In this document: piece after piece, positions 1,290 through 59,654 of the stretch
Numbering within the stretch: the first letter of the stretch is position 1
Layout: each line of letters begins with the position of its first letter
Origin: Nemertoderma westbladi
Lineage: Eukaryota > Animalia > Xenacoelomorpha
Reading direction: 5' to 3'
Length of the DNA: 64,000 nt
Assembly: GCA_032718475.1 (NCBI GenBank)
Contig: JAUCBJ010002964.1
Coordinates: 5,551 to 69,550 of the forward strand
Translations under genes and position numbers: made by a program
Notes under the pieces: generated by a model
The model's input: only the letters and a program-made list of their open reading frames with translations
Told to the model about the DNA's origin: nothing
Databases searched by the model: none

Positions 1290-1744
1290 CTAAAACCCTA
1301 CCTCTTGAATTAGCCAGTCATCGCCCGCGTATGACATTTGGTTCGGTGGTGGGGTGGGTTGGAATGTTTCGATCACGGAGGGGTGGTCGGGGTTGGGTTG
1401 GGAAGAAATAGTTCAGCCGCGAAGGGGTGGTTCACTAGTCTAACAGGCCAGTCGGGATCTCCACCCCCTCCAAATGCAGCTGGACGTTCAACTGGGTGAT
1501 CGGCGCCTGGAAGGACGGCCATTGCCTGCTTGTTAGTCCCCAAACAGAACGCCACATGGTCTAGGTAGCGAGCCAGGTCTTGGAACAACATCGATATGAA
1601 GTACCGTAGTGGAATATGTTCCACAAAACCACTCATTGCTTCTTCGGCTGCTATCATTGGCTGTAATCCGTATCTGTGCTTGAGGCTGTGACTAAGAATA
1701 CCATAGAATACAATATTATATTGAATGTGAGGTTGTCGAAGAAC

Positions 1745-3748: not shown

Positions 3749-3923
3749 TTGTCGAAGAACATACAGTATGAAAGATGGTAAACCCCCCCCCCCCTCCCCC
3801 CGGAGACTCCTAGGCTGTAAAACTTGATTACAGTACATTTTTTTTCGGACCTCATCCGCACGTAAACACCATACATGTAGAATAATATTGACAATGATTA
3901 CCTATGTAAAACCAAGACAATAG

Positions 3924-4955: not shown

Positions 4956-7766
4956 TTAAAACAATACGTCATCTACAACCATATTGGCTTCAGGAATTAG
5001 CGAGGGTTTGCGAGAATCTTTGGGGTGGAGTTCATCTGAAGATCCACTAGGCGTCACTGGAAATCGCCTCCTCTCATTTGTTTTTGGTTGCAGTTGTTGC
5101 CAAGGTGATGGGCCAATCAACGAGAGTAGAACCGGCAGGAAGACCAGCCCATGTAAAATCCCTAAAATATTAACCAAAACCATTATCTTAAAGAAAGAAG
5201 AGAATACATAGGATTCTGCGTTAACCAGGGTAATAATCCCGAGGATGGAAGTAACAGCTGCGTTGATTACGGGTACGCCGACTCGTGATAATCCATGAGC
5301 CATCCGCTCATCGCGGGTCTTACCATCGCTCGTCATGAATGCCTGACACACATGAGCGCAGGCATCTACAGTGAAACCGATACTGAGTACAATCTCGATC
5401 ATAGTAACCGAGTTGAGTGTCAAACCCCAGAAGTGCATCAGACCGAACATATCTGTTATTACCATTGCCATGGTGATGGTGATGTAGAAGGCGGATAGAG
5501 GATGAGGTATGAAGATTAGACTGACTATAAACATTGCAGCGACTGCTATGCCTATAGTCTGTAACGTACTACTCACGATGCTGACATATTGTTCGTAGAA
5601 AATAAAAGCAGCTGTATAAGCGAAAACAGGGAGATTGCTTCCATCGACAATGGATCGAACACCCAGCATCATAGCACCCTCCTCAGTGGAAGTTTTAAAC
5701 TGGTTAGCTAATAAGTACATTCTAGATGAAGAAATTTCGTTGTGGAATTCCGAAAATGCAATGTCACTAGTGAATGTTGTTCCATAATATTCGTCAGAAT
5801 TTTTAATAAAACGAATTAATTTCTCAAAAAATATTGACTTTGAATCTGGTAAAGTTTCATTTTGACTCAACAAAAAAGTTTCAAAGCTGAACATCCATGA
5901 GAGAGAGAAATTAGAATTGATGTAATCAGATTCCTTTAGAGCATCAATGAGCCCTTTGATATTTGATTGAATTTCCTTGTCCCAATAGGCCAATGGTTCA
6001 TCGAATACTATCTGAATAGCAGCACCGCCTCTACCGAAGTACTTTTCGGTATAATTAGTGACATTAGCGAAGTAAGAGTCATGAGCAACAACATAGTTCA
6101 GTTCTAGTCCTTGTTGGAGATTTAAAGTGCCCCAAATTCCAACTCCTAGTAGTCCAGCAAAGGAAAACAAAACAAATATCTTTACTAAAATATTCTTTAT
6201 AAATACTGGAAGACACTTTCTCGGTAAGGTCTCACATAGAGAATCATCATCTACAGCGGAATTCGGCTGTTCCCCATTGCACCAGATGATGGCGCATAAA
6301 TGTCTGCGATCATCAATCATCTGTTGTTTGGAGTCGACGACTTGGCATGTGAATGCGTGTCTGTTTGCATAGACCCTCCTGGTGTGGATGGCAAGAGCAG
6401 CTCCGAAGAAAAGGAGTTGGTTGATGTAGGAGATAATAACTGCAAGGCCAGTGTAGAAACAGAAGTAGCGTACACTTGCGAACTGGGTACTAATCCCTGC
6501 GAGGAAAGCCAAAAAGTCGGTGAGTGAAGTTATTGAAATTCCAACAGCGGCACGACGGAACGTCAGACCCAAATGGCGCTCCACAGAATCCTGTATCCCA
6601 ACTTCCTTCCAACCTGCCAACAACAAGAACATATCATCAACACCAATTCCTAGGATGACGTATGGCATGACCCCAACGATGCTCACAAATGGAACCCCAA
6701 CCAGACAACAAAATCCAAAAGAGAACCCAATAGCTAGAACTGTTGCTATGACACCAGCATTGGTTAATAAACCTTTCGAGGTGACCCAATTTCCACCGCT
6801 ATTAACAAATGATGCATAGAAACACATAATAGTGAACGTGATTGTGAAATACGTTATGTCACTTCCGGTTCCTCCGTCTGACTCTATATTCAAACTTTGC
6901 GACACCGAACGGTATATCAGGGAATTGTTTAAAGTCTCTATTACAACGCCAACCTTTTCGAGGAACTCATTCTCGAACATCAAGGAGACATTGATTTCCT
7001 CTTCGTTTCCTTGCCTTAAATTCCACCGAAATTTCAACGCCTCAGCTGATACTAAGAACTTGGTGTCTAGGAAACGCTGATCCAGGGTCGGGTCAATCCA
7101 GTCAGGTGGCCAATCAGGATCTGACACATTCATAACGGATTTCCATTCTTCTAAGCTGTTTGCTACGATAAGATTCAATTTCCCAACATCAACGGCAGTT
7201 TTCCTTCCATTAGGCAGCCATATGAGTGGATAAGGAATAGGTCTACTTTTTATTTGTTCTCTTATTTGGTTCTCATTGAAGTAACTTAGTAACCAATCAT
7301 TATCACATCGCCCATGTATTCTCGAACATGTATCTTCATAATTGTATGTAATTCTATTAGTGTTTACTGTAATATTATCAATGATGTGTTTGACTTTATA
7401 TAAATCTAACAATAAATCTGCACTCAGTACACTTGAACCTTCTGGGGAACTTGTAGCTATCACTTCCCCGTATAGACCCAGGTTTGGCAGTTGGTAATTC
7501 TCCAGACTTTGCCCTGGTCGCAAAGGAAATAATTCAATCAATCTCTGACGATCGAGCACTGATTGGCTGTTGGACGGTGTATACAACTGCTCCACGTCTG
7601 ACGATTGGTTGATGTTTAAGATCCCAATGGCCATTAATCCGCAAACGAGTAGCACTGATAGGATGACATGCCATGGGTATCGAGCCACAAGTCGTCCAAG
7701 CTTCTCAAAAACACCGCTCATACATGAGTCCACCACCATCAGTTTGGGGGAGTTGCAGCACCTCAT
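4956..7766 (-). CDS. PTCHD3: Patched domain-containing protein (PTCHD3/Ptr-like, RND/sterol-sensing family), single-exon ORF, 936 aa
   Basis: N-terminal LGRLVARYPW plus TM helix, large luminal loop, sterol-sensing domain with GIGVDDMF and ITSLTD, second luminal loop, second TM bundle with SIGFTVDACAH and HGLVFLPVLLSLIGP. The symbol is family-level; orthology is not established. Confidence 0.93.
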   Translation of the reverse strand: MRCCNSPKLMVVDSCMSGVFEKLGRLVARYPWHVILSVLLVCGLMAIGILNINQSSDVEQLYTPSNSQSVLDRQRLIELFPLRPGQSLENYQLPNLGLYGEVIATSSPEGSSVLSADLLLDLYKVKHIIDNITVNTNRITYNYEDTCSRIHGRCDNDWLLSYFNENQIREQIKSRPIPYPLIWLPNGRKTAVDVGKLNLIVANSLEEWKSVMNVSDPDWPPDWIDPTLDQRFLDTKFLVSAEALKFRWNLRQGNEEEINVSLMFENEFLEKVGVVIETLNNSLIYRSVSQSLNIESDGGTGSDITYFTITFTIMCFYASFVNSGGNWVTSKGLLTNAGVIATVLAIGFSFGFCCLVGVPFVSIVGVMPYVILGIGVDDMFLLLAGWKEVGIQDSVERHLGLTFRRAAVGISITSLTDFLAFLAGISTQFASVRYFCFYTGLAVIISYINQLLFFGAALAIHTRRVYANRHAFTCQVVDSKQQMIDDRRHLCAIIWCNGEQPNSAVDDDSLCETLPRKCLPVFIKNILVKIFVLFSFAGLLGVGIWGTLNLQQGLELNYVVAHDSYFANVTNYTEKYFGRGGAAIQIVFDEPLAYWDKEIQSNIKGLIDALKESDYINSNFSLSWMFSFETFLLSQNETLPDSKSIFFEKLIRFIKNSDEYYGTTFTSDIAFSEFHNEISSSRMYLLANQFKTSTEEGAMMLGVRSIVDGSNLPVFAYTAAFIFYEQYVSIVSSTLQTIGIAVAAMFIVSLIFIPHPLSAFYITITMAMVITDMFGLMHFWGLTLNSVTMIEIVLSIGFTVDACAHVCQAFMTSDGKTRDERMAHGLSRVGVPVINAAVTSILGIITLVNAESYVFSSFFKIMVLVNILGILHGLVFLPVLLSLIGPSPWQQLQPKTNERRRFPVTPSGSSDELHPKDSRKPSLIPEANMVVDDVLF

Positions 7767-7872
7767 TATTGAAGTTCACAAGGTTACGCTTGTTACTTAA
7801 TTTTTTTCATGATGCACAAATTCATTAAAGTTACTGTGATGTTGCCTATATACCTACTGTACTTACAGTAGA

Positions 7873-8413
7873 TGTTAGCTTATCCAATTCCGCTAACACC
7901 CCACAAAATGAGCCGTTAAGCAATATTGGGAGCACGAGGTTGATTACCCAACCTCGTGTCACCCCAACAAAGTGGGAAGGAGAAACGCACAATAGAGGTC
8001 AGGGGTTATGCCCCTGAAAGAGGGAGAATAACAGGGGCAACGGGAAACACACCAGGGAAGGTGAAAGGGCGACAAGTAGGATATTAGCCAATAAGGGGGG
8101 AAGCATCGACTGGGTACAGCAATATGGCCAACTGTGCAATATATATTACCGGTCCATGCAATCATTTAGTCAGTGTGTCATTTGGTGTTAGTTAGGTTAG
8201 TTTAGCTAGGGAAGTACCGGGACTTTAATCACCGTCTCCCGCCTTCCGTTTACTATCATTCAATTACTGATTCTGTATACCAGCTATCATTTAACTATTA
8301 TACCCGAAAGACTATATACAACAATCAACAGACTCTTTTCACCTTTCACACACGGCGGGGACGCGTAGATTAATAAACCGGATAAATCGGGATCCTTCGT
8401 GGATCCCGTCACA
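7873..8413 (+). mobile_element. Solo LTR of Bel/Pao family 1
   Basis: TGTTAGC...GTCACA termini; 5-bp TSD GTAGA (7868-7872, 8414-8418); diverged homologue of the LTRs at 11867-12430 and 25300-25861. Confidence 0.95.
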
Positions 8414-11866: not shown

Positions 11867-12430
11867 TGTGACGGGATCCACGAAGGATCCCGATTTATCC
11901 GGTTTATCAATCTATGCGTCCCCGCCGTGTGTGAAAGGTGAAAAGAGTTTGTGTTGTTCGTCGTATATAATCCTTGGGTATAATAGTATAGATGAATGAT
12001 GATAATATAGAATTGGTAATATAGTAAACGGAAGGCGGGAAACGGTGATTAAAGTCCCGGTACTTCCCTAGCTAAACTAACCTAACTAATACCAAATGAT
12101 ACACTGACTAAATGATACACTGACTAAATGATAGCTGTACTGATAATATATTGCACGGTTGGCCAAGTTACGCTACTCAGCCGGTGCCTTCCCCCCATTG
12201 GCTAATAACCCTGTTGTCGCCCCTTTTCCTCCCCAGTAGTGCTTCCCTTCGCCCCTGCTATTCTCTCTCTTTCAGGGGTGTAACCCCTGACCCCTATTGT
12301 GTGTGTGTGTTTCTCCTTCCCACTTTGTAGGGGTGACACGAGGTTGATATTGGTAATCAACCTCGTGTTCCCAATATTGCTTAACGGCTCACTCTATGGG
12401 GTTAGGTTAGCGGAATTGGATAAGCTAACA
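11867..12430 (-). repeat. 3' LTR of element 1
   Basis: Reads TGTTAGC...GTCACA on the - strand; near-identical to 25300-25861. Confidence 0.97.
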
Positions 12431-12439
12431 CTCCCCCCC
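12431..12439 (-). other. Polypurine tract of element 1 (GGGGGGGAG)
   Basis: Purine run immediately 5' of the 3' LTR TG; preceded by an 11-bp-stem hairpin at 12440-12468. Confidence 0.85.
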
Positions 12440-13118
12440 ATGCTATCTTCCCGGTGAGAAGATAGCATCCACCTCTAGTGCGCTACAATTCCGCTGGATC
12501 CCGATCTAGTATCGGGTGTGGGGTGGGATTATTTTCTCTCGGAGCCGGCTTCCCAGGCCGCTCCCTGTGGGTATGATAATGCTACCCCGTTTGTCTGGCG
12601 TCCCGTGTCGGGCCGATCGTGCGCTCTTCCCACACGACTTTTGTTTCCCCAACACCTTCGCCCTAACTCTCCTCCACTCTCACCCTAACTCTCGCATACT
12701 CCCGGACCTCCTCGTCCCACACTCCTCCTCTCACTTCTCCCCCCCCCCACACTTGAATTGCGCCCACGCTCTCTTCGCACTCCACACTATCACCCTTTTC
12801 TCGACCCCTCCTCTCACTCACTCACTCCTCCTGACGAATCTCACCCCCCCTCCTGTGCCGTCGCACTCAAGAAGTGTGAAATCGTCTATTGTCTCGTCCA
12901 TAGTGCCATAGTCAGTTGGCCCCCAATCCCAGTAGCTAATTGAGAAAGGTTGTATGACTATAGTACTTACTTCGAATATGTATATTTCATTACTAGATTA
13001 CTGATTGCTACGTACGTACATACAAATTGCACTTATTTGATTATTTACATTATTTGAATTTGTATTTAAGAGTTCGCACGTTTCGCGTGGTGCCTTCCAG
13101 GCATGTTACACCAAAGTC

Positions 13119-15674
13119 TTAGTTCGTTCCACCAGCCTTTGGGAACCACCTCAAGTCTTTCCCTTTGCCGTCCTCCTCCCTGGGTCGTTTCCTGGTCACT
13201 GCCGCTCCTCTGGGATCTGCTTTCTGTCTTCGGACTCTCGCCGCCACCTCCTTACTGATCCCGGTCGTCGACTCCTTGGGTGCCGATGTTATCAGCTCCC
13301 GATATCGCTTCGCGGGTGGCCCCTCCGAGTGGCCCTGTTGTCTCCCCCTGGTGGCGTCCCATAAGATCATCTTCATTGCCCGCAGCACATGCTCCGCCAA
13401 GAAATCCCTAAACTCTCCTCTGGTCTGTGGCGTCCACCTATGCAAATACCTCTGCGTATTTATCACTCCGGCATATGATGCCGCCGTCGCCACTTCCTGG
13501 TAGGTAAACGGAAGCCTCCGTTTGATAATCTCCATGTGAGCCTCCTGATTGATGTTAAAGAAGCCCCACCGGAACTCCTGGGCCTTCATACGTTGCTGAG
13601 TCATCGCCCCGACGTCGGCCCACTCCTCAAAGATCCTGAACTTCTCTTCGTCGTCCATCCAGTCGCACTGGCGTCCGTAATGTCCCCGAAAGTTACATTT
13701 CGAACATCGGTTATGCAACCGTGGACACGCTCCCATCCTGTGGCTCGACTCGCGGCAATAGAGACAGCTAGTCCCTTTCTGGAACCGGTACAAACAGCTC
13801 CTTTCCTGGTGGGTCTGTCTCCCACAGTAATCGCAGCCGAGTACCAATGTCTCCCGCCCCAGGTCGTCTTTCGTCCCAAGCGATCTCCGCGGTCTGTGGA
13901 GTCGCTGGTAAGCGAACTTCCGGACGTTAGTGTCCCTATCTACGTCGATCTCCTCGCCCCTCTCGGGCATCGTCTCCCCGAATACTACCCGTGGTGCCGT
14001 CCCCGGTTGCTCGCCCAACCTGATAGTGCTCCCCGCGAAATCCATCGCCGGCTCCTCGTGCACCCAGGCCCGCTTGCCGGGTCTATCCCAGAAGGCCCTC
14101 GCCCCACTGGCCGTCACCACCCTCCCGCCAACCCAGTCTGTGTCCGAGTGGCCTATCCTCCCGATGGGCGGCATCTCTCCGAACTTGTCGTCGTCTTCGT
14201 CCTCCTCTGGCAGTGGCTCCAACTCCGGTATCCCGGTGGACCCACTATGTCCCTTCCCGCCTTGGCTCTTGCCCGTAGCTCTCCATTCCTCTAGCTCCCC
14301 TAGCTTCCTTAGCGGCTGATCGCCTTCGGCGCCCGCTGGTATGGGCATCGCTTGCAATCCCGACATCGACTGTTTCGGTGATCCCACCGTCCATCCCAGT
14401 TCTCGCCCTAGAGACTCCCTGACGAAGTCCAACGAAGTTTGTCTAAGCCCGCCTGTTCCCCGAAGCCGTAGCTCTGCGCCCTAGCTTCCTCCTCCCTTTC
14501 CTCTGCTTCTCTCCTCTCCCATCTAGCGACTTCTTCCAGTCGCTTCGCCTCTCGTCTATCCGTCTCTAGCTGCTCCCATCTCTGATACGGCGTATCTATC
14601 TCCCCGTCTACCAGATGTCGGCTGTTGTAGTACACCGACTCGCCCTTCAGCCCCGGGTGGTCTACCAGACCCTCGAAAGCCGTCTTAAAGGCTCTTCTGT
14701 AGTTTAGGGGTGATCCCGATAATAGGAATGCCGCCGGTTCCCTCTCGATAACCACGGTCATGAATAGGTTAAGCAAACCTATCATTATCCAGTCCTCCTG
14801 CAGGATATATCACTTCTGATATACCTTTATCGCTCCTCTTCGGAATTGATACACCTCTTGTTTTCCCGGCCTTGCTCCCCACTTCAGCGAGTTCGCTAAT
14901 TCTGCTCCGTACTCTTCTCTGAACTTCCCCCAGTCCATTGGTTTGTGACACACGAGCCCCAATAGCTGGCCCATCGCCACCGCTCCGCAATGGCCTGTTT
15001 TCTCGACTAATCCCAATCCGTCTGGTGCTGTCATAGCCATGTAGACCGTCTGCATGTCCAGGAGGTTGGGGGTGTCCGGACCGATGATTCGCTCCGCGTC
15101 ATTGCGAATCGCCGATCCCACCTTCGTTGTCAACTTCTCTCTCACTAGGACTTGCACCGCCCTCAGCAGCCGGTTTAACTTCGGCCCGTCCTTCTTCCCA
15201 TAGGTTCCCAGGTCGAATAGGAAAATATCCCCATTTGGCGCGGCCAAATGTAGGAGTATGGTTCTGGCCGATCCCGCCGATCCTCTCCTCGAACCCTCCT
15301 CGTCTTCCACGGTCCCTTTGTCGTCTAGGATCATGTATCCTCCCCTGTTGACGGACTCTATGAACCTCTTCCAATCTTTCCTCGGCGACTCTCTCGCGTA
15401 CTTCGGAATCCCGAACTTCGCCTCGTCCCCTTTCACCACGTAGTGGCAATGCTGGAAGATTGCGTTGTCCAGCGACGGCGTCCCGTAGGTCCCGACCAGC
15501 CGCTGTTCATGCACCTCCCTGAAGTGGTCCTGCAGCACTCGCGCTGCGTGACCCTTTTCCAACCGCTCGTAGTATCCCCTTGTCCTCTCTTCTGGATGCC
15601 TCTTGGTGAAATCCACCAGTGGTCTCCTTTCCTCCTGACTCCGCCTTTCTCTTCCTGATCAGCTTCCCTGCCAT
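13119..15674 (-). pseudogene. Accessory ORF of element 1: DEDDy (RNase D/WRN/EXD-like) 3'-5' exonuclease-like domain, coiled coil, three CCHC zinc knuckles; disrupted
   Basis: Pieces 14810-15616 and 14408-14785 are in frame across one TGA; a frameshift leads into 13119-14432. Motifs ILDDKG, LLHLAAPNGDIFLFDL, KVGSAIRND, NLLDMQ, LLGLVCHKP, YQK*YILQE, then CDYCGRQTHQERSC / CLYCRESSHRMGAC / CSKCNFRGHYGRQC. Confidence 0.75.
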
Positions 15675-16174
15675 TTCGAACTCTCCCGATCGCTCACCTA
15701 TAAGGTGGTGCCTTACCAAGGCGCAATATAAGTGAGTGATGTAGCTAGGATGGTCTGTACAGTCCGATAATGGCCTATCTCTCTCTGAAATGCTAGGTTA
15801 TTGCCGAATTTTCTTACTTTTATTTTCTAAGGTGCCAAATTTCCTAAATTCCCTAATTTTGTCCGTTACTTTAATTATGTTCCAGAATTTCTTTATTACT
15901 GTTACCATAATTTGTTCTCTTAGCCCTATTTTATTTTTAATATTTTATTTTTAATTCGATCTTAATTCTACCGTCCTACTACTTACTATTGCCTATGGAT
16001 TATTCTATTTTGTAATCCACATTCTGGCCTACTCTATGGGCCTGTGCAGTACGACAGTATGCGTCGCGTGGCCTACACGATTTATCCAGCTGTACTCACA
16101 TGCCCCCCTCTCGCTACTCACTACTGACTAATATCTATACTATATATACCCTTCTACCTCTATCTCTTACTAAC

Positions 16175-16705
16175 TAGCACTACGTACTTTCTTACTAACT
16201 TCTAACTCTCTCTAACTAACTAACTAACGGTACTACGTACCCTCTAACTCTTGCTCTCTCTAACCAATGGTACTACGTACCCTCTTACTACTCTAACTCC
16301 ACTAACTAACGGTACTGCGTACCCTCTTGCTAACCTCTAACTCCACTAACTCTCTCTACTAACTAACGGTACTACGTACCCTCTTACTAACCTCTAACTC
16401 CACTAACTCTCTCTACTAACTAACGGTACTACGTACCCTCTTACTAACCTCTAACTCTTCTAACTCCACTAACTCTCTCTACTAACTAATGGTACTACGT
16501 ACCCTCTTACTACTCTAACTCCACTAACTAACGGTACTACGTACCTCCTAACTAACTAACTAACTCTAACTTTTGGTACTACATACCTCCTAACTAACTA
16601 ACTAACTCTAACTTTCGGTACTACGTACCTCCTAACTAACTAACTAACTAACTCTAACTTTCGGTACTACGTACCTCCTAACTAACTAACTAACTCTGAC
16701 TCTAA
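16175..16705. repeat. Tandem array inside element 1 (CTAA-rich units with GGTACTACGTACC core)
   Basis: About ten variable-length units between the pol stop and the accessory ORF. Confidence 0.9.
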
Positions 16706-16813
16706 TTTTTTTATTTATTTATTTTTATTTTGTGTGTGGGAAGGGCGTCTCACCCTCAATCCCACCCCCCTCAGTCCAAAACTTGGACGACTAAACTTCT
16801 CTCTAACTCCATT

Positions 16814-19800
16814 CTAAGGTGCCCCTTCTAGTAGACAGCACTTCCCTACAGCCCTCCTGTAGGTTTTTCTGTCTTTCGCACCTATCTTGCCACTTATCCA
16901 CACTTCTACCGATCGGACTCTTCCATCCTCATCGGAGTAAGTTCCCACAACTCTCGCCAACCGCCACTGGTTGTTGATGATGGTATCATCCGTGACGATC
17001 ACGAGATCCCCCTCTCTTAACTCTCTGTTCGTGTTCCTCCACTTGCTTCTTCTGTGAAGTGTGGGTAGGTATTCCTCAACCCACCTCCTCCAATACTCTG
17101 CGCTTATCGCCTTAGCGACTTTCCAACTCTGGCGGGAGTGTATGTCATCTGGGTCTACACCCCGCATATCGATAGTCGCTGGCCTTTCCATTAGGAAATG
17201 GTTGGGCGTCAGCACGTCTAGTGACTCAGGGTCGTCATTCTCCAGATATAGCGGTCTGCTATTAATGATACCCTCACACTTCGCAAGTACTGTTCTCAGC
17301 ACGTCTTCTGTAACCATGTGGGTGTTCATCAACTTCGTCATGAGACGCTTCGAACTACCCACGAGTCTCTCGACGCATCCTAGGGTATGCAGTGCATACG
17401 GCGTCCTCCGCTCCCACTTTACTTGTCGTCATCTCATGGCTGCCCTGACTTCCTCCCCTCCCAGGATGTCCAAGGCCTCTGCCATCTCGTTCTCCGCTCC
17501 CACAAAGTTGGTTCCAATGTCGGAGTATATTACTGCGATCGTCCCACCTTTGCGTTCTCTAAACCTTTCTAAGGCATTAATGAATGCCGATGCGGTTGCA
17601 TCTTGGGTGAGTTCTATCCCTACCGCCCGCGTGTTGTTACATACGAAGATAATACCGTAGCGTTTCTCCGTGTGCCGCATCACCTTGATCTTTATTGGCC
17701 CGAACATGTCCACACCTCAATGCGTAAATGGCGGGTCGTGATGTCTTACCCTACTCGCCGGTAGTGGTGCCATCTCCTGTATGGCTCGCTCCTTCTTCGC
17801 TCGCCGGCAGGTTTGGCACTGCCCCACTACCGCTTTTACCTTCTTCCTCAACTGTTTGACCCAAAAGGTCCTCCTTATCTCCATGAGGGTTCGGTTGGTG
17901 CCCCCGTGCAATATCGACTTGCGGGAGTCCCAAATAATCTGGTGGACTATCGGTGATGCTGTGGGGATGATGATGGGCTTTGGTGGTACGATGATACTGT
18001 TGTTGTATCCCACCCTAGAGTTCATTACTAGAATCCCGTCATCATTGAGTTGTGGTGACAGCGTGATTAGCTTGCTGTCCCGTCGGAGATGCTGCTGTTT
18101 ACCGACGCGTTCCACCTCGTCGCCATAGTTCTTCCGTTGTTCATAGCGGATGACTGCTTTGGCCGCTCCTTCCAGATCTATTGTTGTCGTAGTCTTTACG
18201 CCTTTGCCAACCCCCGCGAGGAAATTCCCGAAGGCTCTCCAATACGCCACTAATTTCTTGGTCTTGTACCAACTAGAGCTGTAGCTGAGGAGTTTATCCG
18301 TCGGGTTATCGCACAGTTCTCCTGGTTTTGGTTGCACGTCCCTTATCTCCCTCACCATCTGGGAGTATATCTCTTCTCCCTCCGAATCTCCCTCTTCTCC
18401 CTCCAATACTGCTTCTCCTGAGCCCAGGTCCACCTTTCTCATCGGCGGCCAGGCCTCCTTGTCGCTCAGAAACTGTGGCCCGTGTTGCCACAATGCTTCC
18501 CTTTTTAAGAAAGTGTGGCGTGCCACGCCCCTCGATAACAAGTCCGCTGGATTCTCGTCCGTTGGGCAGTAGTGCCACCTTTCTAATTCTGTGGTCGCCC
18601 TTATTTCATCCACCCTATTTGCGACGAATATAGTGTATCTCGTCCTCTCGTTATGTAACCAGCCAAGTACTACCACGGAATCCGTCCAGTAGTGTGTCTC
18701 CACTATGTTGGGAATAGCGTCCATTAAGTAGGCTGTGGCCCTAACTCCTAGTCTCGCTGCTGTTAACTCGAGCTTCGGAACTGATGCTGAATCTGGTGGC
18801 GTCGACTTCGCCTTGCTGAAGGCAAGTCTGGGCTTGTGAGGCCCCTCTCGTTGTACTAAATAGAGTGCCACTCCGTATGCCTCTAGTGACGCATTGGAGA
18901 ACATGTGCAGATCCAGGTTCGTCATGTCCCCATCCGGGAAATACACTCGTGGCATGCTGTATGTTCCCATATGCTCCAAACCTTCTGTCCACTTACACCA
19001 CCGTTTCCTGATCTCTTCTGGTACCTCTACGTCCCACTCATCCTTAAGTTTGTATACTTTCTTAAGTATCTGTTTCCCTGTGACTAGTAGTGGGGATGCT
19101 AGGCCTAGGGGATCGTATATCCTTGCTATATACGACACATAGCCCCTCTTTGTGTGGATGTCTGCGCCCTCCTGGCTCAACTGGTACTTCAGTTCATCAG
19201 TCTCTCTGTTCCACACGATTCCCAGTGCCTTCTGTTGAGACTCTATTCTCTTGTTCGCCATGTCCTGCCCCTTTGCTGTTGTGGGATTATCCATGGTCGA
19301 TCCTGGTCTCTCATCTTTTATCGCCTTGATAAATTCCTTCGAACTGGATTGGAATTTGGTTAGGTTGAAGCCGGATCCTTTAAGGATGTCGCGAACCTCG
19401 CGCCCTGTGTCCGGTAGCTCCTTAACCGTATTTCCAGACTCCATCCCGTCGTCTACGTAGAAGCCGCGTCGAATCATATCGACGGCTCTAACACTGTATT
19501 TATCTTCCTTTCCCTTTACTGTGTCTCTTACGGCCATAGTCGTCGTAAATGAAGACGACTTGGCTCCCATATTCTGTACTATCATCTTGTACATCGGTAT
19601 TGTCGACGGTTCCACGTCGCCGTTGTACCATAGGAAGCGTTGACTGTCAATATCCTCTTCCGTCACACGGACTTGGTTGAACATGCCTTCTATGTCACAG
19701 GTGAAGGCGTGTTTCCCATTTCTAAATCTAAGTAGGACCTCTATCCCTGAGTTGTATATGTTGGGACCCTCTAGCAGATAGTTGTTTAGGCATTTTCCAT

Positions 19801-20749
19801 TGGTCTTTGCCGACGCGTCCACTACCATCCGCAGCTTACCTTTCTTTGGATCTAAAGCCATGTGGAGTGGCAGGTAATATGTCCTGTCCGTGTTCAGTTC
19901 GTCGACCGGTAACTCCACGGCCCATCCTTTCTCGACGTACTTTCTGATTGTCTTGTGGATGTACTCATTCTTTTCGGGGCTCCGTTTTAACGTCTGTTTC
20001 AACTTACGAAGCCTCGTGAGCACCATCCCTTTATTATCGGGCAGTGGTAGCTTTGGTAGCTTCCATACCATTCCTATGGTATACCGCCCCTCTTCGCATC
20101 TCATAGACTCCTCTACGCTCTGCTGGGCCTGCTTGTCTTCTACCGAGGTCCCGACCCCGGTTTCCTTTAGCCCCTCAAAATCCTGTCTGAGCAGTCTCTT
20201 GAGCTGTTCCTCCGCTCTCTCATCCTCTATTTCTTGCTTGGTTCCCGCGAACATGCATCCCGATGTCTCCGACATCCTAAATGGTATCTTACTCTTAATT
20301 GGGCCGCTCAGTGTCCACCCGAACGGTGTTAATATGGCCACCGGGTCACACTGCTTGTCTTCGCCGAAGACCATTTGCATTCTTTCGTGGGCCGTCGGGC
20401 AGTCCATTCCTACTATGATGGATACTTTCCTAACGTCCACCTCTGGGATTGAGAAGTCGATATCATCCAGGAATTTATATTGTTCAACCTCGATGTTGGT
20501 TGGCCGCCTGGCATTGATATTTATTGACTCTATCACTTGGATGGGGTTGATGGTCGCCCCGTAGTCGCATCCCGGTGCCACCGCTGCAATTGCACACCGT
20601 CCGGTCCTCATCTCCAGGACCTCATCTTTGCTAGAGATTGTTGTTACCCCCATTCTACTTGGCCTCGTTCTCAATCCTATCTCTTCGGCCACCCAATTTT
20701 CGATTAATGTGAAGGCAGCTCCACTATCGACCAGCATCAGTGTGGTCAC
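16814..20749 (-). pseudogene. pol: pol of element 1 (aspartic protease, RT, RNase H, integrase) with in-frame stops
   Basis: LVDSGA (PR); YYLPLH, RMVVDAS, DIEGMFNQV, FYVDDG (RT); YDPLGL, HMFSNAS (RNase H, catalytic D>N), PKLEL, WTDS, NPADLLSRG; DMFGP, SDIGTNF, INSRPL, LTPNHFL (IN). Track ORFs 17717-20749, 17429-17713 and 16814-17362 share one frame, split by TGA codons. Confidence 0.95.
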
Positions 20750-23700
20750 TTATCGATTGCCTTCTCCAATCACCCGCACTGGTACTACCCCAAGTAGCAC
20801 CGTTCCTCTCTTCTTCGCCCCTACCGTGCTCGTTGCCATCGTTTGGCCTTTGCTTTGACCGAACTTAATTGGCGTCTCCTTGCATTGCCTGGCTCTATGC
20901 CCACTCATCACACATCGCGAGCAGATCTCGTTTCTCGCCGCGTATTCTACCTGATCTTCCCTGGGTAGCGCTTGCCAGTACCTGCAGTTCATGGTTTGAT
21001 GAAGCGCATTTGTATGTAGCTGGCATTTGCTCTTTGGGTTGTAGCTGTCCTTGTACAGTGCATTGCGTATCGCAGTTGCATTTGCACCAAAGTCCCTACT
21101 ATTCTTATTGTTTGGGTTCGGCGTACTGGTCGTACTGGGGTTGTATTTATTTGTGTTGTTATCTTTCCCCTGTCCGCTCCATGATGTGGTCTTACCCCCG
21201 GCTACCTGTGGACTTGCAGTCCCCTGCGTCGCTGCGTATGGCAGTGATTGCCTGAGCTTTGGTAATGCGTTTGACGTGTTGTGTTCTGGTTTCGGCCTAT
21301 GGTAATCGGTTCTTGATCCCTTTCTCAGGCTGTCCTCACTATAGACTGGGTCGGTTATTAATTCGGCTTCGTAATTTAAGAAGCTCGACATTTCTTCTAA
21401 ACCCGGTTCCGCACCCTTCCTATCTCGAGTGGAGAAAGCGATTTTCCTCCACTTGTTGCGCAGCCATATCGGTAGTGCCTGCGCTATCGTGGTGATGTTG
21501 TTGGACGCGTTGAGTTCATATGGCGCGTCTAGCGTTTTTAGCACGATTAGCGCCTTCTCAACTTTGTTAGCGAATGTCTTTATGCTAAAGGGGTTATCCT
21601 GTAGGCCACCCGATGTTATGCCCCTCAGGGTTTGCCGGATGATCTTGGCCGGGTGCCCGTATTCCCTGTCCAGTGCCCGCCATGCCATCGTGAAGCCGCC
21701 CTCTATGCCCTGGTATTGCCTCACGATGTCGTATGCTGGGCCTCCTGTGTATACTTGCAGATATTTTAGGCACTCCGCCTGCGTCAAGTTCTTTGTTGGT
21801 ATTTCGTTACTATACATGCGCCGAAACTGTAGATATTCTTCCGGCCTGCTCCCATCGAATTTGAATGGTTCCACGGGTGGTAGCTCGATCCTAGTTTTTA
21901 GCGCATCGATTAACGTGGCCATTCCCATCGCCTGCGCTTCCAATGGGTTCGATGGATGTTGCATAGTTTCTCCTGTTGGGTGCGGTCCGTCCGTCCTATT
22001 TTCTGCCCTCCTCTGGCTTGGGTATATCATTGGGGGTAGCGGCCCCCTCCATACTTCTGTGTCGCATGATCTATTTTTATCCAAGGGGTTCGTTGTTCTT
22101 ACTCCTGTCAGGGTATATTGTTGATATTGTGATGGGGGAATGTCACCCTGCCCCCCCCCCCCCCCCCCCACCGGTATGTTTGGTACTGGGGTTGATGTTA
22201 ATATATTGGGGCCCATGCATCTATCCGCAATAATTCCCCCCTCTCCTGGGTATATGTTATGTCCTTGCATGCTGTAGTCATACTGCTGTACTGGTACCGG
22301 TATAGGCCTATCAGCTTCTGGCCTGCCTACCGGTATGTATTCCGCGACCTCCGGGTTTAATCCTGTCGTCCGCGCTATCCTATCGCCTACATTATTTCTG
22401 CCAGCATGGCCTATAGTATGTGCAGTAAGGCCTACAGTATGTCCTACAGTCTGTATGTGTTGCTCGGGATCGAAGTTTATTCTTCTCGAGTAATCCTCCC
22501 CACGGCTACAGTATTCTCGATCGGTAGGTAGATCCCGTTGGAAAGTTTCTCTTCGACCCCCTCTACTGCTCTCGTCCTCGTACCGGTACATCCAGTACAC
22601 CCCTCTCTCGACGCGTAGTGCGCCTCATCAGTTCGCGTTTCTCCGGGACGACGGCAATCTCCCGAAGTTCGACCCCACCGACTCTCCCTTTCCATCTCGA
22701 CTACCGACGGCTCGCTATCCGTCCTTGCTCTCCTATTGTTCGCGGCGATACTTCTCCAACTGTCTTCTCTTCTTCTCTTCTTCTCTTTTCAGTGCAGTGT
22801 TCCCTTCCGTGAGATCTCTCGTCGACCTCCCGGTTAAACTCCACTGTTCTTCTTCCCTCTTCTGATCGGGCTCGACGCTTCGTCCGCCCTCTCGTGACGT
22901 CAATCTGGTCAATCGCAATCCCCCTATTACTCTCCGTCGCCGGGTGTTGCGGTTTACCTAATTCGGCCCGCACATTATCCGCCGATGCCTGTGGGACACT
23001 CTCTGCCCCCCCCCCTCTCGCCGCTAACCTGTTGCTGTGGGGTTCCCGTAGTCCCCCCCCACTCGCCACTAACTTCCCGTTGTGGGGCTCCTGCAGCCCC
23101 CCCCCCCCCCACTCGCCACATATCACACCGCTACCTCTTACTCCACTTCTACACCCCTCTCCAGTCGACACAACGTTTCTACTGCGGCTAGGTCTACTCA
23201 CCCCCGCCTCTCTCTCTACTACTACCTGGCCTCTTTCGGGTTGGCTCAACCCCGCCACCTCCTGCCTACTAACTACGTGGCCTGCCAGGCCGCCGTCGGG
23301 TTGACTCAACTCCGCCACCTCCTGCCTACTAACTACGTGGCCTACCAGGCCGCCACCTGTCGTGTTATACACGTCCGACGCGTCCACATTAATAGCACCA
23401 CCGGTATTGCCATCAGTTAGATCAATTAAGTCTTCTAACTCAATTAAATTATTTTGTGCACCCAAATTAGAAATGGAATTATTTTGTTCGTTTGAAATAA
23501 GATTATTTGAATTATGTTGTGTGGCTACGTTATTTGAATTATTTTGTAAATTCGAATTTGGGTCATTATTTAAATTATTTGGATTATTTTGCGTAACTAC
23601 GTTATTTGAATTATTTCCTACATCAACATTAGAATCGTTCGGATTTAAATTTAAATTACTACCACTAGGTAAAATATTTCCTGCAATAAAAGTTTGGTTA

Positions 23701-25231
23701 GAATTATCCAATACGGTACTATTAATATTAACGTCGCCTACTCTAGTATTATTATTACCCCCCCCCCCCCCCCCCCGCCCGTACGGTCACACCAGTCTCG
23801 GGTTTGTCGTGCGGTCCCTGTAAGTGGGGTATTAATAAATGTTTCCACGACCCCTGGTTCCTCATAAACACTCGAGCCAGCCTCACTCTCCGACAATCCC
23901 ATCCGCGCCAACTCCAGTTTGCGCTTCTGTCTAGTTTGGTACTGTATAAGCCCACTTAAACGCGTATGTAAATCATCCCGCACACGCTGCCCCTGTTCCA
24001 TTCTCTCCTTATTTTCCCGCGTGCTCTGCTCGGCCAGTTCCCTCTCTCTTACAACTCTCTTCATTCGTCTCGCCTCCCTCGCTACCTCACGCTCTTTACG
24101 TTCCGCCTCGCGCTCTTTACGTTCCGCCTCGCGCTCTTTACGTTCCACCTCGCGCCTTTCACGTTCACTCTCCTCTCTCGCCTCACGCTCTTTACGTTCA
24201 CTCTCCTCTCTCGCCTCACGCTCTTTACGTTCACTCTCCTCTCTCGCCTCACGCTCTTCTTGTTCCTTCCTTCCTATTTCTTCACACTCCCTAAAGCTTC
24301 TCGCGGCCTTCTCGGCCCTCTCTCCGGTCTCTCTAACCAGTTCCATTTCCTTCTCTAATAGCGCTCTCCCCTCCTCTAACTGTCTCTCTACTTCTCTCTG
24401 GCCTTGCGCTATCAGATCGAGATGGTACACCGCATTTATTTCCCTCACCCGTCTTTCTTTTGCGGAGGATGTAGCAGACTTATTGGTTGTGATGGATTCC
24501 CTCTGCCTTCCCGTTCTACTAACTTTCCCCCTCCTCCCGGAACTTCCTCCGACCGACGAGACCGAATCCTCGGGGTTAACCTCGGATTCGCCCTCCTCAG
24601 GTCTCCTCCAACCCACTAATTTTGCTCCCCGGGCATCGACTAAGTATGGCCCTATGTACACTACACTAGGCTGCATACCCCTACACTCCCATAGATCATG
24701 CAGTTCGCTGGCAACCCCTCTCGCTCTGTCCTCGGCTAGTTCTCTCTGCCTAAAGCGCAGTAAATAGTTAAAGTGTTCGTTCGACTCACCTAGTCTTTTC
24801 TTTAACTTTACCTCGCCTACTTTCGCCCCTCCTTTGGCCTCTTTAAGTAGTTTCCGGGTCGCGTTGTAGGCCCGTTGAAGTCGATCGCTGACCCCAACGT
24901 CCTCATTGCCGACCTCTCCTCCATCTCTCCGGGTCCGGCGTCGTACCGTCGGCCCCACCGTCGCCGTTCCGGTGGGCCACCCGTCGCCCTCAGCCTGTGG
25001 CTGGCCGGCGACGTTAGTATGTTGACCCTCACTCCGTGCCGACTCGTCTTTCTCCTCTCCCGTCTCGCTTTCTCCTCGTAGACGGTCCCCCACATCTTGG
25101 TTCGCCGGGTCGTTCGTCGTCGGTGTGGCGTTGACCGGCGTCGTGGGCCTATATCGTCTCATCGCGGCCTCGCGGATCGTTAGGTCTCCGTCCGGGGTCC
25201 GCGGCGGTGTCGTCTCCCTCCCTTGGCTCAT
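20750..25231 (-). pseudogene. gag: gag of element 1 (long low-complexity N-terminus, Bel/Pao capsid-like region, Cys/His knuckles); frameshifted
   Basis: ORFs 23738-25231 (contains PEDSVS and E/R coiled-coil repeats), 22701-23711 and 20750-22600 (FKFDG...Y..F, L...YG, LP.WLRNKW, CQLH..H....C, CSRC..GH....C); in frame with pol across a single TAA. Confidence 0.88.
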
Positions 25232-25245
25232 CTTTGTACTTTAGA

Positions 25246-25299
25246 TTGGTGGCTGGTAGTCACTGTTTAACTAGGGGCGGCAGCTTGGGTTTTAATCAC
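25246..25299 (-). other. Non-canonical primer-binding region of element 1, complementary to its own LTR
   Basis: The RNA strand after the LTR end reads GTGATTAAA...CCCTAGTTAAAC...CACCAA with no TGG; complementary segments lie in the LTR at 25478-25486, 25499-25510 and 25523-25528. Confidence 0.75.
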
Positions 25300-25861
25300 T
25301 GTGACGGGATCCACGAAGGATCCCGATTTTTCCGGTTTATCAATCTACGTGTCCCCGCCGTGTGTGAAAGGTGAAAAGAGTTTGTGTTGTTCGTCGTATA
25401 TAATCCTTGGGTATAATAGTATAGATGAATGATGATAATATAGAATTGGTAATATAGTAAACGGAAGGCGGGAAACGGTGATTAAAGTCCCGGTACTTCC
25501 CTAGCTAAACTAACCTAACTAACACCAAATGATACACTGACTAAATGATACACTGACTAAATGATAGCTGTACTGATAATATATTGCACGGTTGGCCAAG
25601 TTACGCTACTCAGCCGGTGCCTTCCCCCCATTGGCTAATAACCCTGTTGTCGCCCCTTTTCCTCCCCAGTAGTGCTTCCCTTCGCCCCTGCTATTCTCTC
25701 TCTTTCAGGGGTGTAACCCCTGACCCCTATTGTGTGTGTGTTTCTCCTTCCCACTTTGTAGGGGTGACACGAGGTTGATATTGGTAATCAACCTCGTGTT
25801 CCCAATATTGCTTAACGGCTCACTCTATGGGGTTAGGTTAGCGGAATTGGATAAGCTAACA
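25300..25861 (-). repeat. 5' LTR of element 1, with CCAAT (25630-25634), TATA-like (25576-25585) and Inr-like TCAGT (~25552-25556)
   Basis: TG...CA termini, TSD, identity to the 3' LTR; promoter motifs identified by consensus only. Confidence 0.95.
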
Positions 25862-43533: not shown

Positions 43534-44676
43534 TGTAAAGGCTTTTGCGGAATTGGCCGGTTATTTCCCCCGTAAAGTACTCTGTAGTTGGTTTAACAGG
43601 CATAAAAGGCCGTGTCCTTACTGTACTGGTGTTTTAGAGGACATAAAAGCCATTTCTTCTGTATGTGTACTTTAGCGGACATAATTAGCAATTCTATGAC
43701 GCAATACGCCAGATCCTCTTGAAACAGTGTAGCTACCATGACGACGGCTAACAGCTGATGCTGTACACGTGGAGCTTTTTCTTTGTTCTCTGTTCCTTCT
43801 TTGTTCGGTCGACCAATCAGAGCGTTTTTTGCCTCTGTGTTGGAGATTGTATATAGAAACTCATGGAGTTGAGTCAGTATGTGATTTTGTCCACAGCCTA
43901 GAACACCGGCTTTGGAACCTCCGTGTTTCAGTCTTTAGCCCAACATTAGTAGGCTTAATTATAGAACGTATATCTGTTATCAAATCGATCATATCAATTT
44001 ATATCTTAACATTTTACTGCTATTTACTGTCGGTTATTCATTATATTTGTTGATGGAATATTATATTTGGAATACTGATAAATAATCAGACACCCCAATC
44101 TTCTTGATATACTAAAGGTTAGAGAGACCGGTTACATATAACGATTGCGACTTACATTAAGTGGTTTGAAGTGAATCTAATGCTATTTCATAAGCCCTAC
44201 ATGTATTGTCTGTTGTTCTCTTTATATGTGACTAAATTTAGTGAAGGTCGGCAGATTAGTGTGCAGCATTGTGCAGTATTGTGTATGATTGTGACTGATA
44301 ACAAAGCATCTCCTAAAGAATGCGCCATATACGTGAATCTATAGCCATCCCGTTGTGTCTAGTTTAAGTCATAACTCTGTTTACATATTTAGAGCGCCAC
44401 GTCCTAAAGGAACTGTTAATATTTCCCGAAAGTGAATAATATTTGTCAGAGATTATATATTACGATCAGTCGAATAATACAGTAGGCCTACCCCGCAATA
44501 CGGTTAGGCTTCCGAATCCAGTCTCCCGGGTATATCCAGCGGGTGAATGATCGCGCATAGACTGGCTTCGGCTAATGTAGTGTATCAAATACTTGTCATA
44601 GGCTAAAGACGATCTATTATCTAAAAGACATCCCAATTTGGCAGGTTAAACTGCTAAAGGTCTGAAAGCGCGAACA
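43534..44676 (+). repeat. 5' LTR of element 2, with CCAAT (43813-43817), TATA-like (43850-43858) and Inr-like TCAGT (43874-43878)
   Basis: Identity to 59663-60805; TG...CA ends; promoter motifs identified by consensus only. Confidence 0.96.
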
Positions 44677-56620: not shown

Positions 56621-57808
56621 ATGACTGAGTTGATAGAAGATGTTCTTAGTATCAGGGAGCGATATACTCTACCTTTACAAGCGTTTGTCGATAGCTTGAA
56701 ACGCGGCGACGCTGGTCCAACTCCTACGGAGGATGATGGTCGTTATATCGAACCGCCAATGTCCTAGGAGCAACTTACGCGTGAATTGGATTATAGAAAG
56801 TTCACCGCTCGCTATACGCATCGTAATGGTACGTATATGGACTTCTTAACTACTGGCCATCCTATCGATTTACACGATACGGACGACGTAGACACCGAAA
56901 GGGAAATGGTTTTATTTAAATATCATACCCAGCGGAGTCGGCACGATAAACCGAGAATAGAACACGAGAATTCTATTCGAAATCAGCTCGAAAGATAGAA
57001 CGTGGAAGAAGGCTTGTAGAGACAAATAGAGGAGAACCACTGGAGAAGAGACATGGGTTAATGTCCAGGGTCCATAATGTGAATAGTTTTCCCCAGGGCA
57101 CGGGTGCTCGCGGGCGGTCTCCTTCGGGAGGCTGTAAATTTCTCTTCCTTCATCGTTTTCCTGTAATTATTGTGATCAGTGTCACAATTAAAAGGCAAGA
57201 ATGAATGATGACATGACGGAAAACTTGTCCATTGTGGTATCTTATGGATACTACCATATATCCTCCCTCCCCTTTACTTCCCTTATCCCTCTATACATCG
57301 CTATTGAAAATACAACATTCTTCGTCCCACCTTCTCTTCCCAACGCGCTCGGAGCTTTGGGAAACGATCGACCAATCATTGCCGTATCGTGGTATTGATT
57401 ATACCACCTCTTAATAAACCTCCCATCCCTTACTATTAATCTGGATGCTCATATTGGTGTCCGCACCTCCTGTCCATGTCACACTCTGTTGATATTTATG
57501 ATATCAACTTCCACCCTCTCGTTGTTGATTAGAAAATCAACCACCAATGATTTCCTTAAGTCCACAACCGTGATACAAGGACTGAAAGGACATGCGGATA
57601 GTTTGTGAACAACTGGTACCATTATGTGTCATAAATCTGGTTGTTCACCCCCTAATCACTGGGGATAAATTCATTTGGAGATAGTCATCGAATGATGCAA
57701 TCCTCCTACTGAGATCGTATTTCGGAATATTTCTAAATACGACATAGGTCTTCCCCTGCTCTCTACCACTACCATCAATGGAAGACATATTAGGCATACG
57801 ACGGGAAT
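56621..57808 (+). pseudogene. Probable decayed 5' part of the element 2 accessory ORF
   Basis: ATG at 56621 after TATATAAA (56581-56588); coding-like composition; 56621 and 56786..56998 are in the same frame as 57809, with many scattered stops. Confidence 0.45.
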
Positions 57809-59584
57809 ATGGAGAACATTCCATACCCTTTCGTGGATACTCAGCTGATTGCTCCCTGGGCAGAAGGCCGAGGTTTCTTCCGCACTATGTATGCAAATAC
57901 ACCCAGCGGCATTACTAAAGTACAACGAACCTCCATCGGACATCTTGCCTTTCAAGAATACGGATGGAATTTCAAGGTTGGAAATCCTATAAATTACCAA
58001 CAAGTATATGGAGATCATTATTCTCGTTTATACTTTGATGGACCATTGACCGCACCTGGCGCCGTGTATAGCTTTATGAGTGTTCCACTTCGTCCCTCCT
58101 TAGCTATATACACGATCTTTGAAAACGCAGCACTTGCCGGTTGGCTAACCGATGTGTGCAGTCGTACCATACGCGCCCATCCCTTAATACTTGGAACCAA
58201 ACTCGCCAAGTTAGATGAACACAATAAATTCATCCGCTTCGAATGTTTCAGGCGCTTTCTGACTCCGTTCCGTAACGTTGATAGTCAGTTCAAGGACTGC
58301 GCTCTGACCAAGCTCAGCCTAAGAGACTCAGCTGCGGAGAAGCTAAACAGCGCGGGATTTGCTCTCTTTCAGGACGTTTGTATACAGAACTTACATTCAT
58401 CTGTTATACAAAGACCCCGAATACCCACAGGTTATTCTGTCGTGGAAGTTCAGACAGTGGGTCCGCTTGCGGAGACAGCCGCACCTACCTCAGCTATGCA
58501 ATTGGAAGACGAACCAATATGCTTAGAATCTGAAGCGATCCAGCCTAGAGCGCCCCGGAGCAGCGATAACGATTACGTCTTGGAGTGGTATCAAGGTCCA
58601 CAATGTCTCACCGCATACGATTATCGACACGCCAACTATGTTTCTCGAAAACGTTGTCGATTATGCGCATCGAGAGACCATTTCACCCCTATGGACTCAG
58701 ACGTACCCTGCTCCTATTTCCACGAACAGCCAATGATAGAGATCTATTGTGCGTATTGCAGACTTAATAACTCGCATATTTTTGCAGTCTGCCCCCAATT
58801 TATGACCCAATGCCACCACTGTCAACTTAAAGGACATGCCAGTTATAATTGCCCCTTTAACCGCGATTTAGAAAGCGTAGATGAGATGATTACCCTGCGC
58901 TACATCCGAGCTTGGGAAGCGAACGCGGATTTACATTGTGAGTCCCGCCATCGTTACTATCCTGGACGCTCTTACGAGGGAGTTTACGCGTTCCATCCCT
59001 ATCTATTCGCGTCTGTGGAACAAAAAACACGCACACCGAGTTACGAACTAATGAAGCATGTTGGTGAGTGTATTTCCACCAAATTTGTTCGAAAATATCT
59101 TAGGAACGTCAATCCTAACGATATTACTTTATACCATTTGATCAATTACATCCGTCAAGACCCTGAGTATGGAGATTTATTTATCAACTCGCACCCTGAG
59201 TTACAGGAAGTATCTCGACGGCCCTACGAATATCGAGCCCGAGAACGCGAGCTGGAAAGAACCATTAAACCAAGGAAGTTTCTCACCACTCATGGTCCGC
59301 CTACCGCCATTGTCCAGACGACCCGTCAAGGACCCGTAGGAGCTGCTGTCCTAAGACGCACCCTAAAGGCCGTTAGACCTCTCTCCACTGAAGTTGATAT
59401 CGATCAACCAGGTACCTCGACCGGCGGATACACCGATCGTAATCCTAAACCTTCTGATGCAATTGTATTGCACCCTTCACCCAGGAGTTACAGCCCTCCT
59501 AGTAAAGTGGCTCGCCCCAAAGAGAAAAGGACTCTTGCTAGCCTCAAAAAACTGCGTAAACGCTGTCCGCGTAAGAAAGACTAA
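57809..59584 (+). CDS. Accessory ORF of element 2 (591 aa): C-terminal half of a DEDDy-like exonuclease fold, three zinc knuckles, basic tail
   Basis: FVDTQL, SIGHLAFQEYGWNFK, VYSFMSVPLRPSLAIYTIFE; CRLCASRDH, CAYCRLNNSHIFAVC, CHHCQLKGHASYNC, WEANAD; colinear with 13119-15616; ends KKLRKRCPRKKD (NLS-like). Confidence 0.8.
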   Translation: MENIPYPFVDTQLIAPWAEGRGFFRTMYANTPSGITKVQRTSIGHLAFQEYGWNFKVGNPINYQQVYGDHYSRLYFDGPLTAPGAVYSFMSVPLRPSLAIYTIFENAALAGWLTDVCSRTIRAHPLILGTKLAKLDEHNKFIRFECFRRFLTPFRNVDSQFKDCALTKLSLRDSAAEKLNSAGFALFQDVCIQNLHSSVIQRPRIPTGYSVVEVQTVGPLAETAAPTSAMQLEDEPICLESEAIQPRAPRSSDNDYVLEWYQGPQCLTAYDYRHANYVSRKRCRLCASRDHFTPMDSDVPCSYFHEQPMIEIYCAYCRLNNSHIFAVCPQFMTQCHHCQLKGHASYNCPFNRDLESVDEMITLRYIRAWEANADLHCESRHRYYPGRSYEGVYAFHPYLFASVEQKTRTPSYELMKHVGECISTKFVRKYLRNVNPNDITLYHLINYIRQDPEYGDLFINSHPELQEVSRRPYEYRARERELERTIKPRKFLTTHGPPTAIVQTTRQGPVGAAVLRRTLKAVRPLSTEVDIDQPGTSTGGYTDRNPKPSDAIVLHPSPRSYSPPSKVARPKEKRTLASLKKLRKRCPRKKD

Positions 59585-59654
59585 CTGTTTAGAGTATTTT
59601 TATATTTTAGAAACTGTGATTTGTTATATTTTATAGACTTAAATCCCATTTTCT

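Follow-up and report, generated by a model that had tools for sequence, protein, structure and literature searches.

A probable DEDDy exonuclease-like domain and triple zinc knuckles in the env position of a BEL/Pao-type retrotransposon copy from Nemertoderma westbladi

A dead copy of a BEL/Pao-type LTR retrotransposon (element A), found in a 64,000-nucleotide stretch of the Nemertoderma westbladi genome (contig JAUCBJ010002964.1; hereafter the window), carries in the env position a third open reading frame, ORF3, whose front half very probably represents a very diverged DEDDy exonuclease fold and which further downstream contains three zinc knuckles. What is new here is that a BEL/Pao-type element combines a probable DEDDy domain and three knuckles in the ORF at the env position, as seen in one dead copy. 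Our preferred but tentative reading is that ORF3 is the broken gene for a knuckle-bearing DEDDy 3'-5' exoribonuclease that would have trimmed small silencing RNAs of the host, or the precursors of such RNAs. The weight of the finding is limited by the single dead copy and the lack of homologs.

Element A is 13,995 bp long and lies on the minus strand of the window (11867–25861). Its LTR pair ends in TG...CA, is flanked by a 5-bp target duplication, and differs by four substitutions and one indel between the 5' and 3' copies, a divergence of 0.7%. The pol domains follow the order PR-RT-RH-IN, as in BEL/Pao, and DUF1759, Peptidase_A17, Integrase_H2C2, and DUF5641 all exceeded their Pfam cut-offs (E-values in pol: PF05380, 3.6e-39; PF17921, 1.3e-10; PF18701, 1.8e-24). 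Because the Pao marker domains were above the cut-offs, we class element A as BEL/Pao-type, an assignment made by marker domains. Database searches with its pol found no close relative, and neither tRNA genes nor Rfam families were found within the 64-kb window.

This copy of element A is dead. The gag region contains frame changes and is closed by an in-frame stop ahead of the protease, two more in-frame stops lie further along (three in the pol frame in total), and 2 of 15 catalytic or zinc-binding positions that we take to be invariant in pol were substituted as counted by eye, one in RNase H and the other in the integrase zinc finger. The available text of PMC554778 names the RNase H motif used for this count. 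A perfect 8-bp hairpin was located inside the 3' end of the LTR (25305–25325, minus strand) and is kept in solo LTRs, and a 9-bp hairpin (~12440–12465, minus strand) was located immediately upstream of the purine tract that precedes the 3' LTR. The 688 bp downstream of ORF3 are strongly purine-rich.

Table 1. Positions in the window of the features of elements A and B.
Feature	Position	Strand	Remarks
5' LTR, element A	25300..25861	-	562 bp, TG...CA
Candidate self-primer, 9-nt LTR segment, element A	25478..25486 and 12045-12053	-	complements the bases right after the LTR
Primer-site position, element A	25291..25299	-	no TGG start
gag region, element A	20750..25240	-	three pieces, two frame changes, DUF1759
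pol, element A	16814..20749	-	protease, RT, Pao RNase H (Peptidase_A17), integrase, DUF5641
pol-ORF3 spacer	15675..16813	-	1139 bp; 42- and 57-bp tandem repeats at ~16210-16701
ORF3, element A	13119..15674	-	~852 codons, env position, one stop and two frameshifts
DEDDy-like domain of ORF3	14735..15424	-	profile, MAFFT alignment, guided model
ORF3 motif residues, ExoI and ExoII	ExoI Asp 15325; second-acid Lys 15319; ExoII Asp 15100	-	
ORF3 motif residues, ExoIII	Gln 14818; Tyr 14809; Glu 14797	-	
Glu/Arg-rich helix, probable coiled coil	14483..14596	-	sequence judged by eye
Three zinc knuckles	13665..13835	-	exact CX2CX4HX4C
3' LTR, element A	11867..12430	-	purine tract just before the LTR
11-nt self-complement, element B LTR	43970..43980	+	pairs with 44677-44687, directly after the LTR
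Third ORF, element B	57794..59584	+	intact, 596 aa, knuckles

ORF3 and pol are on one strand. Three-frame translation and the ORF list placed the start of ORF3 at an ATG at 15674 and its first open frame at 15658–14813, followed by a TGA (14812–14810) beyond which the identical frame reopens to ~14411. A second frame is open from 14480 to 13122 and ends with the stop at 13119, and the frame changes fall near the start and at ~14480–14411. A codon-usage score trained on the gag and pol of element A itself was calculated in successive segments along ORF3. It picked one frame in all 13 segments from 15620 to 14540, through the stop; from 14450 to 13190, 12 of 15 segments favoured the other. Of the steps in this reconstruction, the 5' frameshift is the least secure: its evidence is the ATG together with two segments whose scores are weak. 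Translation and codon usage together bear out the initial annotation, which had described a sense ORF of ~850 codons after pol with one TGA and two frameshifts; in this copy, ORF3 is a pseudogene.

The same annotation had counted three CX2CX4HX4C knuckles and had judged the ORF not to be env, and both points held. The knuckles (13835–13794, 13766–13725, and 13706–13665, minus strand) match the pattern exactly in three of three cases and are separated from the nuclease-like domain by ~300 codons. They were not reported by the Pfam scan, and the PDB sequence matches to this region were weak and mostly to CCHC proteins (best match 7C42, E 0.033). No membrane helix was found in ORF3, with a highest 19-residue hydropathy of 1.46 in any piece, and neither the hydropathy scan nor the sequence indicated a signal-like start, the start being basic. 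Since none of the ORF3 pieces has a membrane-like stretch, ORF3 is not env-like, and an env identity was rejected.

Standard searches with the front half of ORF3 gave no matches in Pfam, among PDB sequences, or in three word-indexed sequence searches. With phmmer, ORF3 had a single match among 1.84 billion representatives, a TPR protein that we rejected as a relative because the match was spurious, and no homolog was found. As these searches were empty, we built a dedicated DEDDy profile from 66 bacterial PF01612 domains (67 loci were translated, L123 was dropped for want of a usable frame, and the partial loci L151–L154 were left out). In local mode, the exonuclease piece of ORF3 was the top scorer among 66 ORFs of the window, and its score was reached by 2 of 1000 shuffles, though it amounted to only 3.1 bits. 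In glocal mode, no control sequence reached the ORF3 score, whether a simple shuffle (0 of 400), a five-residue block shuffle (0 of 400), or a tile of another real protein of the window (0 of 81); in a larger glocal run, 17 of 10,000 shuffles reached it (p ~0.002). Compared to true DEDDy members, which scored at least 129 glocal bits, ORF3 scored −21 bits, and the hhalign probability was 12% at best. The top three ESM Atlas matches to ORF3 were PF01612 clusters (score 0.82), and the 10 best family-bearing matches all belonged to one family or clan, which we treat as a lead only; shuffled proteins attain the same score about one third of the time.

The single-sequence AlphaFold model was unusable (pLDDT 33.8). 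When AlphaFold was fed the DEDDy alignment, the model reached a pLDDT of 72 and a pTM of 0.71, with a pLDDT of 80–90 in the core. In a Foldseek search with this guided model, the RNase D of Trypanosoma brucei (TbRND) occupied ranks 1–5 and Egalitarian ranks 6–10, both of which are outside the guiding alignment. DnaQ-like domains led the 50 matches listed for the guided model (best Z 15.3, rmsd 2.9, 180 aligned residues), and the matches listed included Nibbler (Z 14.6), WRN (13.9), EXD1 (13.4), and TbRND (13.2). Because the model was guided by a DEDDy alignment and has no control fold, it indicates compatibility only. The predicted fold is partly circular and not independent evidence, and the ranking of TbRND and Egalitarian is the less circular point of the modeling. 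TbRND was the top Foldseek match and also, in an independent but weak result, the best PDB sequence match of the knuckles. As the structural ranks were near-tied, also with the domains of Pol I and RNase D, we assign ORF3 to no subfamily.

The initial annotation had proposed a DEDDy-like domain joined to the knuckles, which the profile test, the Atlas lead, and the guided model support. The DnaQ-like fold that it implied is compatible with the guided AlphaFold model and its Foldseek ranks, but was not seen in the unguided model or borne out by the hhalign probability. The front half of ORF3 might also have no homology to DEDDy exonucleases and show their motif order by chance, a reading that the empty database searches, the 17 of 10,000 shuffles, and the frequency of the Atlas score among shuffled proteins would allow. 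However, the DEDDy family was named ahead of the test, the profile, the motif register, and the Atlas matches concur, and the core of the model is confident, making chance quite improbable.

All the DEDDy motifs that had been quoted for ORF3 were found in its sequence, in register. A MAFFT alignment of ORF3 with 48 of the 66 profile proteins, bacterial DEDDy domains to which it is 10–21% identical, was invariant in only four columns, the Asp residues of ExoI and ExoII and the Gln and Tyr of ExoIII, and the ORF3 residue matched in all four. Three of the four acidic sites are filled. The ExoI DxE is not complete in this copy, in which the Asp is kept and a Lys occupies the site of the second acid. 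In ExoIII, within which the stop codon falls, QxxY is in register, with Glu at +4 where Asp is usual and Asp at +5. About 12 additional residues lie ahead of ExoIII, where model confidence was low.

As the second ExoI acid is absent in this copy, we do not file ORF3 as an active nuclease. The retention of three acidic sites and the Tyr despite such low identity suggests catalytic constraint, and the sequence makes it fairly likely that the ORF3 family had nuclease activity before this copy decayed. One lost acid fits such decay because invariant pol residues were also hit in this copy; the small LTR divergence of 0.7% would by itself make the loss of a given residue unlikely. Alternatively, ORF3 may encode a catalytically dead DEDDy fold that acts as an RNA-binding adaptor carrying or packaging element RNA, with the coil and the knuckles supplying partner and RNA binding, as in Egalitarian and EXD1. 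This would agree with the Lys in ExoI and the Glu in ExoIII, with the Foldseek ranks of Egalitarian, one listed complex of which contains a retrotransposon (I-factor) RNA signal, with the Z score of EXD1, described in the available text of PMC5408684 as a DEDD derivative that is inactive but still binds RNA, and with the presence of knuckles but no exonuclease in element B (see below). However, the Tyr and the three remaining acidic sites have been kept at extreme divergence, the pol of this copy has lost invariant residues too, and the structural ranks are near-tied and come from a guided model. We therefore consider an adaptor somewhat unlikely.

The GPY/F integrase module is a Ty3/gypsy trait. 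It is found in the rotifer carriers of comparable genes, whereas the carrier here is BEL/Pao-type: the available text of Rodriguez et al. 2017 (PMC5408684) describes DEDDy ORF3s in the bdelloid Juno, Vesta, and Athena/Terminon elements, confirming the statement in the initial annotation that such ORFs occur in rotifer LTR elements. According to that text, the rotifer DEDDy ORFs span LTR and Penelope-like elements, and like the ORF3 of element A they are non-env, located after pol, RNase D-like, and without a membrane helix. They differ, by description only, in having no coiled coils and intact catalytic residues, and the only knuckles that the text mentions are those of gag and pol, whereas in element A they are in ORF3. 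Roles in 3'-end processing and silencing were already proposed in the same text for the rotifer ORF3s, for which no unambiguous link with copy number was seen. The recurrence of DEDDy ORFs in unrelated retroelements is also described in the available text of PMC6431247.

TbRND (PDB 7C42; Gao et al., PMC7797062, available text) resembles ORF3 in having tandem CCHC fingers downstream of a DEDD exonuclease; in TbRND, these fingers raise RNA binding and cleavage. However, TbRND is a cellular mitochondrial enzyme that has four fingers and a 28-residue linker and trims the U tails of guide RNAs, whereas ORF3 has three knuckles ~300 codons off with a coil between and is 16% identical to it. We treat the likeness of the two fusions as an analogy. 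Egalitarian, EXD1, Nibbler/Mut-7, and WRN belong to the fold class proposed for ORF3 (Z 12–15 to the guided model) and are host genes.

By analogy with the trypanosome enzyme, the knuckles of ORF3 would grip single-stranded RNA while the nuclease would trim RNA 3' ends, and the targets would be the small silencing RNAs that the host directs against the element, or the precursors of such RNAs. This small-RNA substrate, which we infer, is the weakest step of the proposal. Small silencing RNAs would be the most likely target, given that unrelated retroelements repeatedly carry DEDDy ORFs, and the recurrence in rotifers suggests a general role that is not tied to the primer site of element A. Nibbler and EXD1 are among the near-tied structural neighbours of the guided model. 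The env position of LTR retrotransposons can house enzymes, and if the exoribonuclease reading is true, ORF3 extends the rotifer-type accessory gene to another retroelement lineage, BEL/Pao, which would have taken up an RNA trimmer with knuckles as in trypanosome RNase D; this would point to an advantage of a general kind, for example in evading silencing by small RNAs.

A second BEL/Pao-type element in the window, element B (43534–60805, plus strand, 17,272 bp), was used for comparison. It has 1143-bp LTRs with seven substitutions, a 5-bp duplication, and long open gag-pol frames, and its pol is 30% identical to that of element A. Its flanks match 31968–33082, and element B thus seems to be inserted into another repeat. 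The knuckles of its third ORF aligned to those of ORF3 in element A (E 3e-7). The N-terminal part did not align to the front of that ORF3 and had no Atlas match and no known relative, and against the DEDDy profile in glocal mode the ORF was not significant (21 of 400 shuffles). Its score against an RNase D sub-profile was above 300 of 300 shuffles, on a stretch of 17 residues; given this short stretch and the glocal result, we rejected this match as chance among five profiles.

ORF3 could also be neutral cargo, a host nuclease gene captured without benefit to the element, and it is broken in this copy, the single one examined. However, the codon usage of ORF3 fits that of the gag and pol of the element, the distant element B has related knuckles in an intact frame at the same position, and no close host-like relative was found among the 1.84 billion representatives. 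We hold this to be very improbable.

The initial annotation had also pointed out that no tRNA-type start follows the LTR of element A and that a self-complementary site is present instead, as was found. The 9-nt match begins at offset 0 from the LTR end, with 37 of 3000 shuffled LTRs giving equal length, and is extended by 3 further bp across a small loop. In element B, the match is 11 nt long, also at offset 0 (9 of 3000 shuffles of equal length). The extended pairing energies were −13.8 kcal/mol for element A and −16.2 kcal/mol for element B. The part of the LTR leading into the site of element A was identical at 38 of 40 positions across three LTR subfamilies, tied best of 27 such intervals, compared to 402 of 562 positions for the whole LTR. 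Two solo LTRs (7873–8413 and 39118–39662, plus strand), each with a 5-bp duplication, are 80–83% identical to the LTR of element A, and one of them is altered within the 9-nt site in a way that still allows a G-U pair. The self-complementary sites, the extended pairing, and the conserved interval make self-priming plausible for both elements; element A may also be primed by a tRNA fragment. A splice-made primer was rejected as unnecessary, since the LTR contains the complement in one uninterrupted piece that no AG precedes.

Motifs that we take to be promoter-like put the primer site of element A ~55–95 nt inside the transcript and not at its start, and AATAAA and ATTAAA are absent from the LTRs of both elements. 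Tf1 and Tj1 are members of the Ty3/gypsy group. According to the available text of PMC4600332, their primer site complements their own LTR-derived RNA, as in elements A and B, but they prime with the mRNA's own 5' end, whereas the site of element A seems to lie inside the leader.

ORF3 might instead mature the primer for reverse transcription, with an LTR-derived RNA pairing with the primer site and its 3' tail being trimmed to the duplex edge. Matches that begin at the first post-LTR base in both elements, the conserved LTR interval, the internal position of the site, and the lack of AATAAA and ATTAAA are in line with this. However, the primer duplex had a pair probability of ≤0.01 in cis in 15 of 15 leader folds, the leader of element A folded no better than shuffles (z −0.78), one solo LTR is changed at the site, and the self-priming of Tf1 relies on primer release by RNase H cleavage, according to a title cited in the available text of PMC4600332. 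Furthermore, element B has a self-complementary site without a detectable exonuclease, which makes the priming link weak. The link between exonuclease and priming put forward in the initial annotation is thus weakly contradicted, as is the co-occurrence of the ORF with a self-complementary primer site, since element B has the site only; element B could have an exonuclease that has diverged beyond detection, or could borrow one in trans. We regard primer maturation by ORF3 as improbable. If it were true, an element-encoded primer-maturation enzyme would be a third route beside tRNA and the RNase H of Tf1.

Among 11 distant BEL loci (33–36% integrase identity), none had an ORF3 relative or a DEDDy ORF, but many of these loci are short or cut, so that they say little about the co-occurrence of exonuclease and primer site. 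Self-matches were at most 6 nt long in the three distant loci that have terminal repeats. At the distant BEL loci L158 and L159, the contig starts equal the contig ends, and these may be circular or tandem forms.

The ICTV profile of Belpaoviridae (PMC8742986) gives a size of 4.2–10 kb, a third gene that is env-like, and a primer site of 18 nt for tRNA-Arg or tRNA-Gly. Elements A and B have LTRs, gag, a pol in the order PR-RT-RH-IN, and the optional third gene in common with this family, but exceed its size range and have non-env third genes and self-complementary sites. A literature search, with Repbase, subscription papers, and supplements outside its scope, found no report of a DEDDy ORF3 in BEL/Pao. 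The word exonuclease is absent from the available text of a BEL/Pao survey (PMC3118150) and of the Troyka paper (PMC12440569), and the available text of PMC3601003 and PMC4600332 does not describe self-primed BEL elements. Two self-complementary primer sites in one window add to the case for tRNA-independent BEL/Pao elements.

Other repeats were also found in the window. Tandem arrays of a 147-bp unit with inner 20-bp repeats lie at 34700–38840 and 62690–64000 in two opposite orientations. Inverted repeats of 324 bp (34199–34522 and 39663–39986) flank the 147-bp arrays like those of a foldback element, with a solo LTR in one arm. Three non-LTR retroelement fragments on the minus strand (1373–3897, 29311–30626, and 42104–43533) are 97–99% identical and encode RT and DUF6451. 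An uninterrupted frame of 939 codons at 4956–7775 (minus strand) encodes Patched and sterol-sensing domains and is probably a host gene or a large exon.
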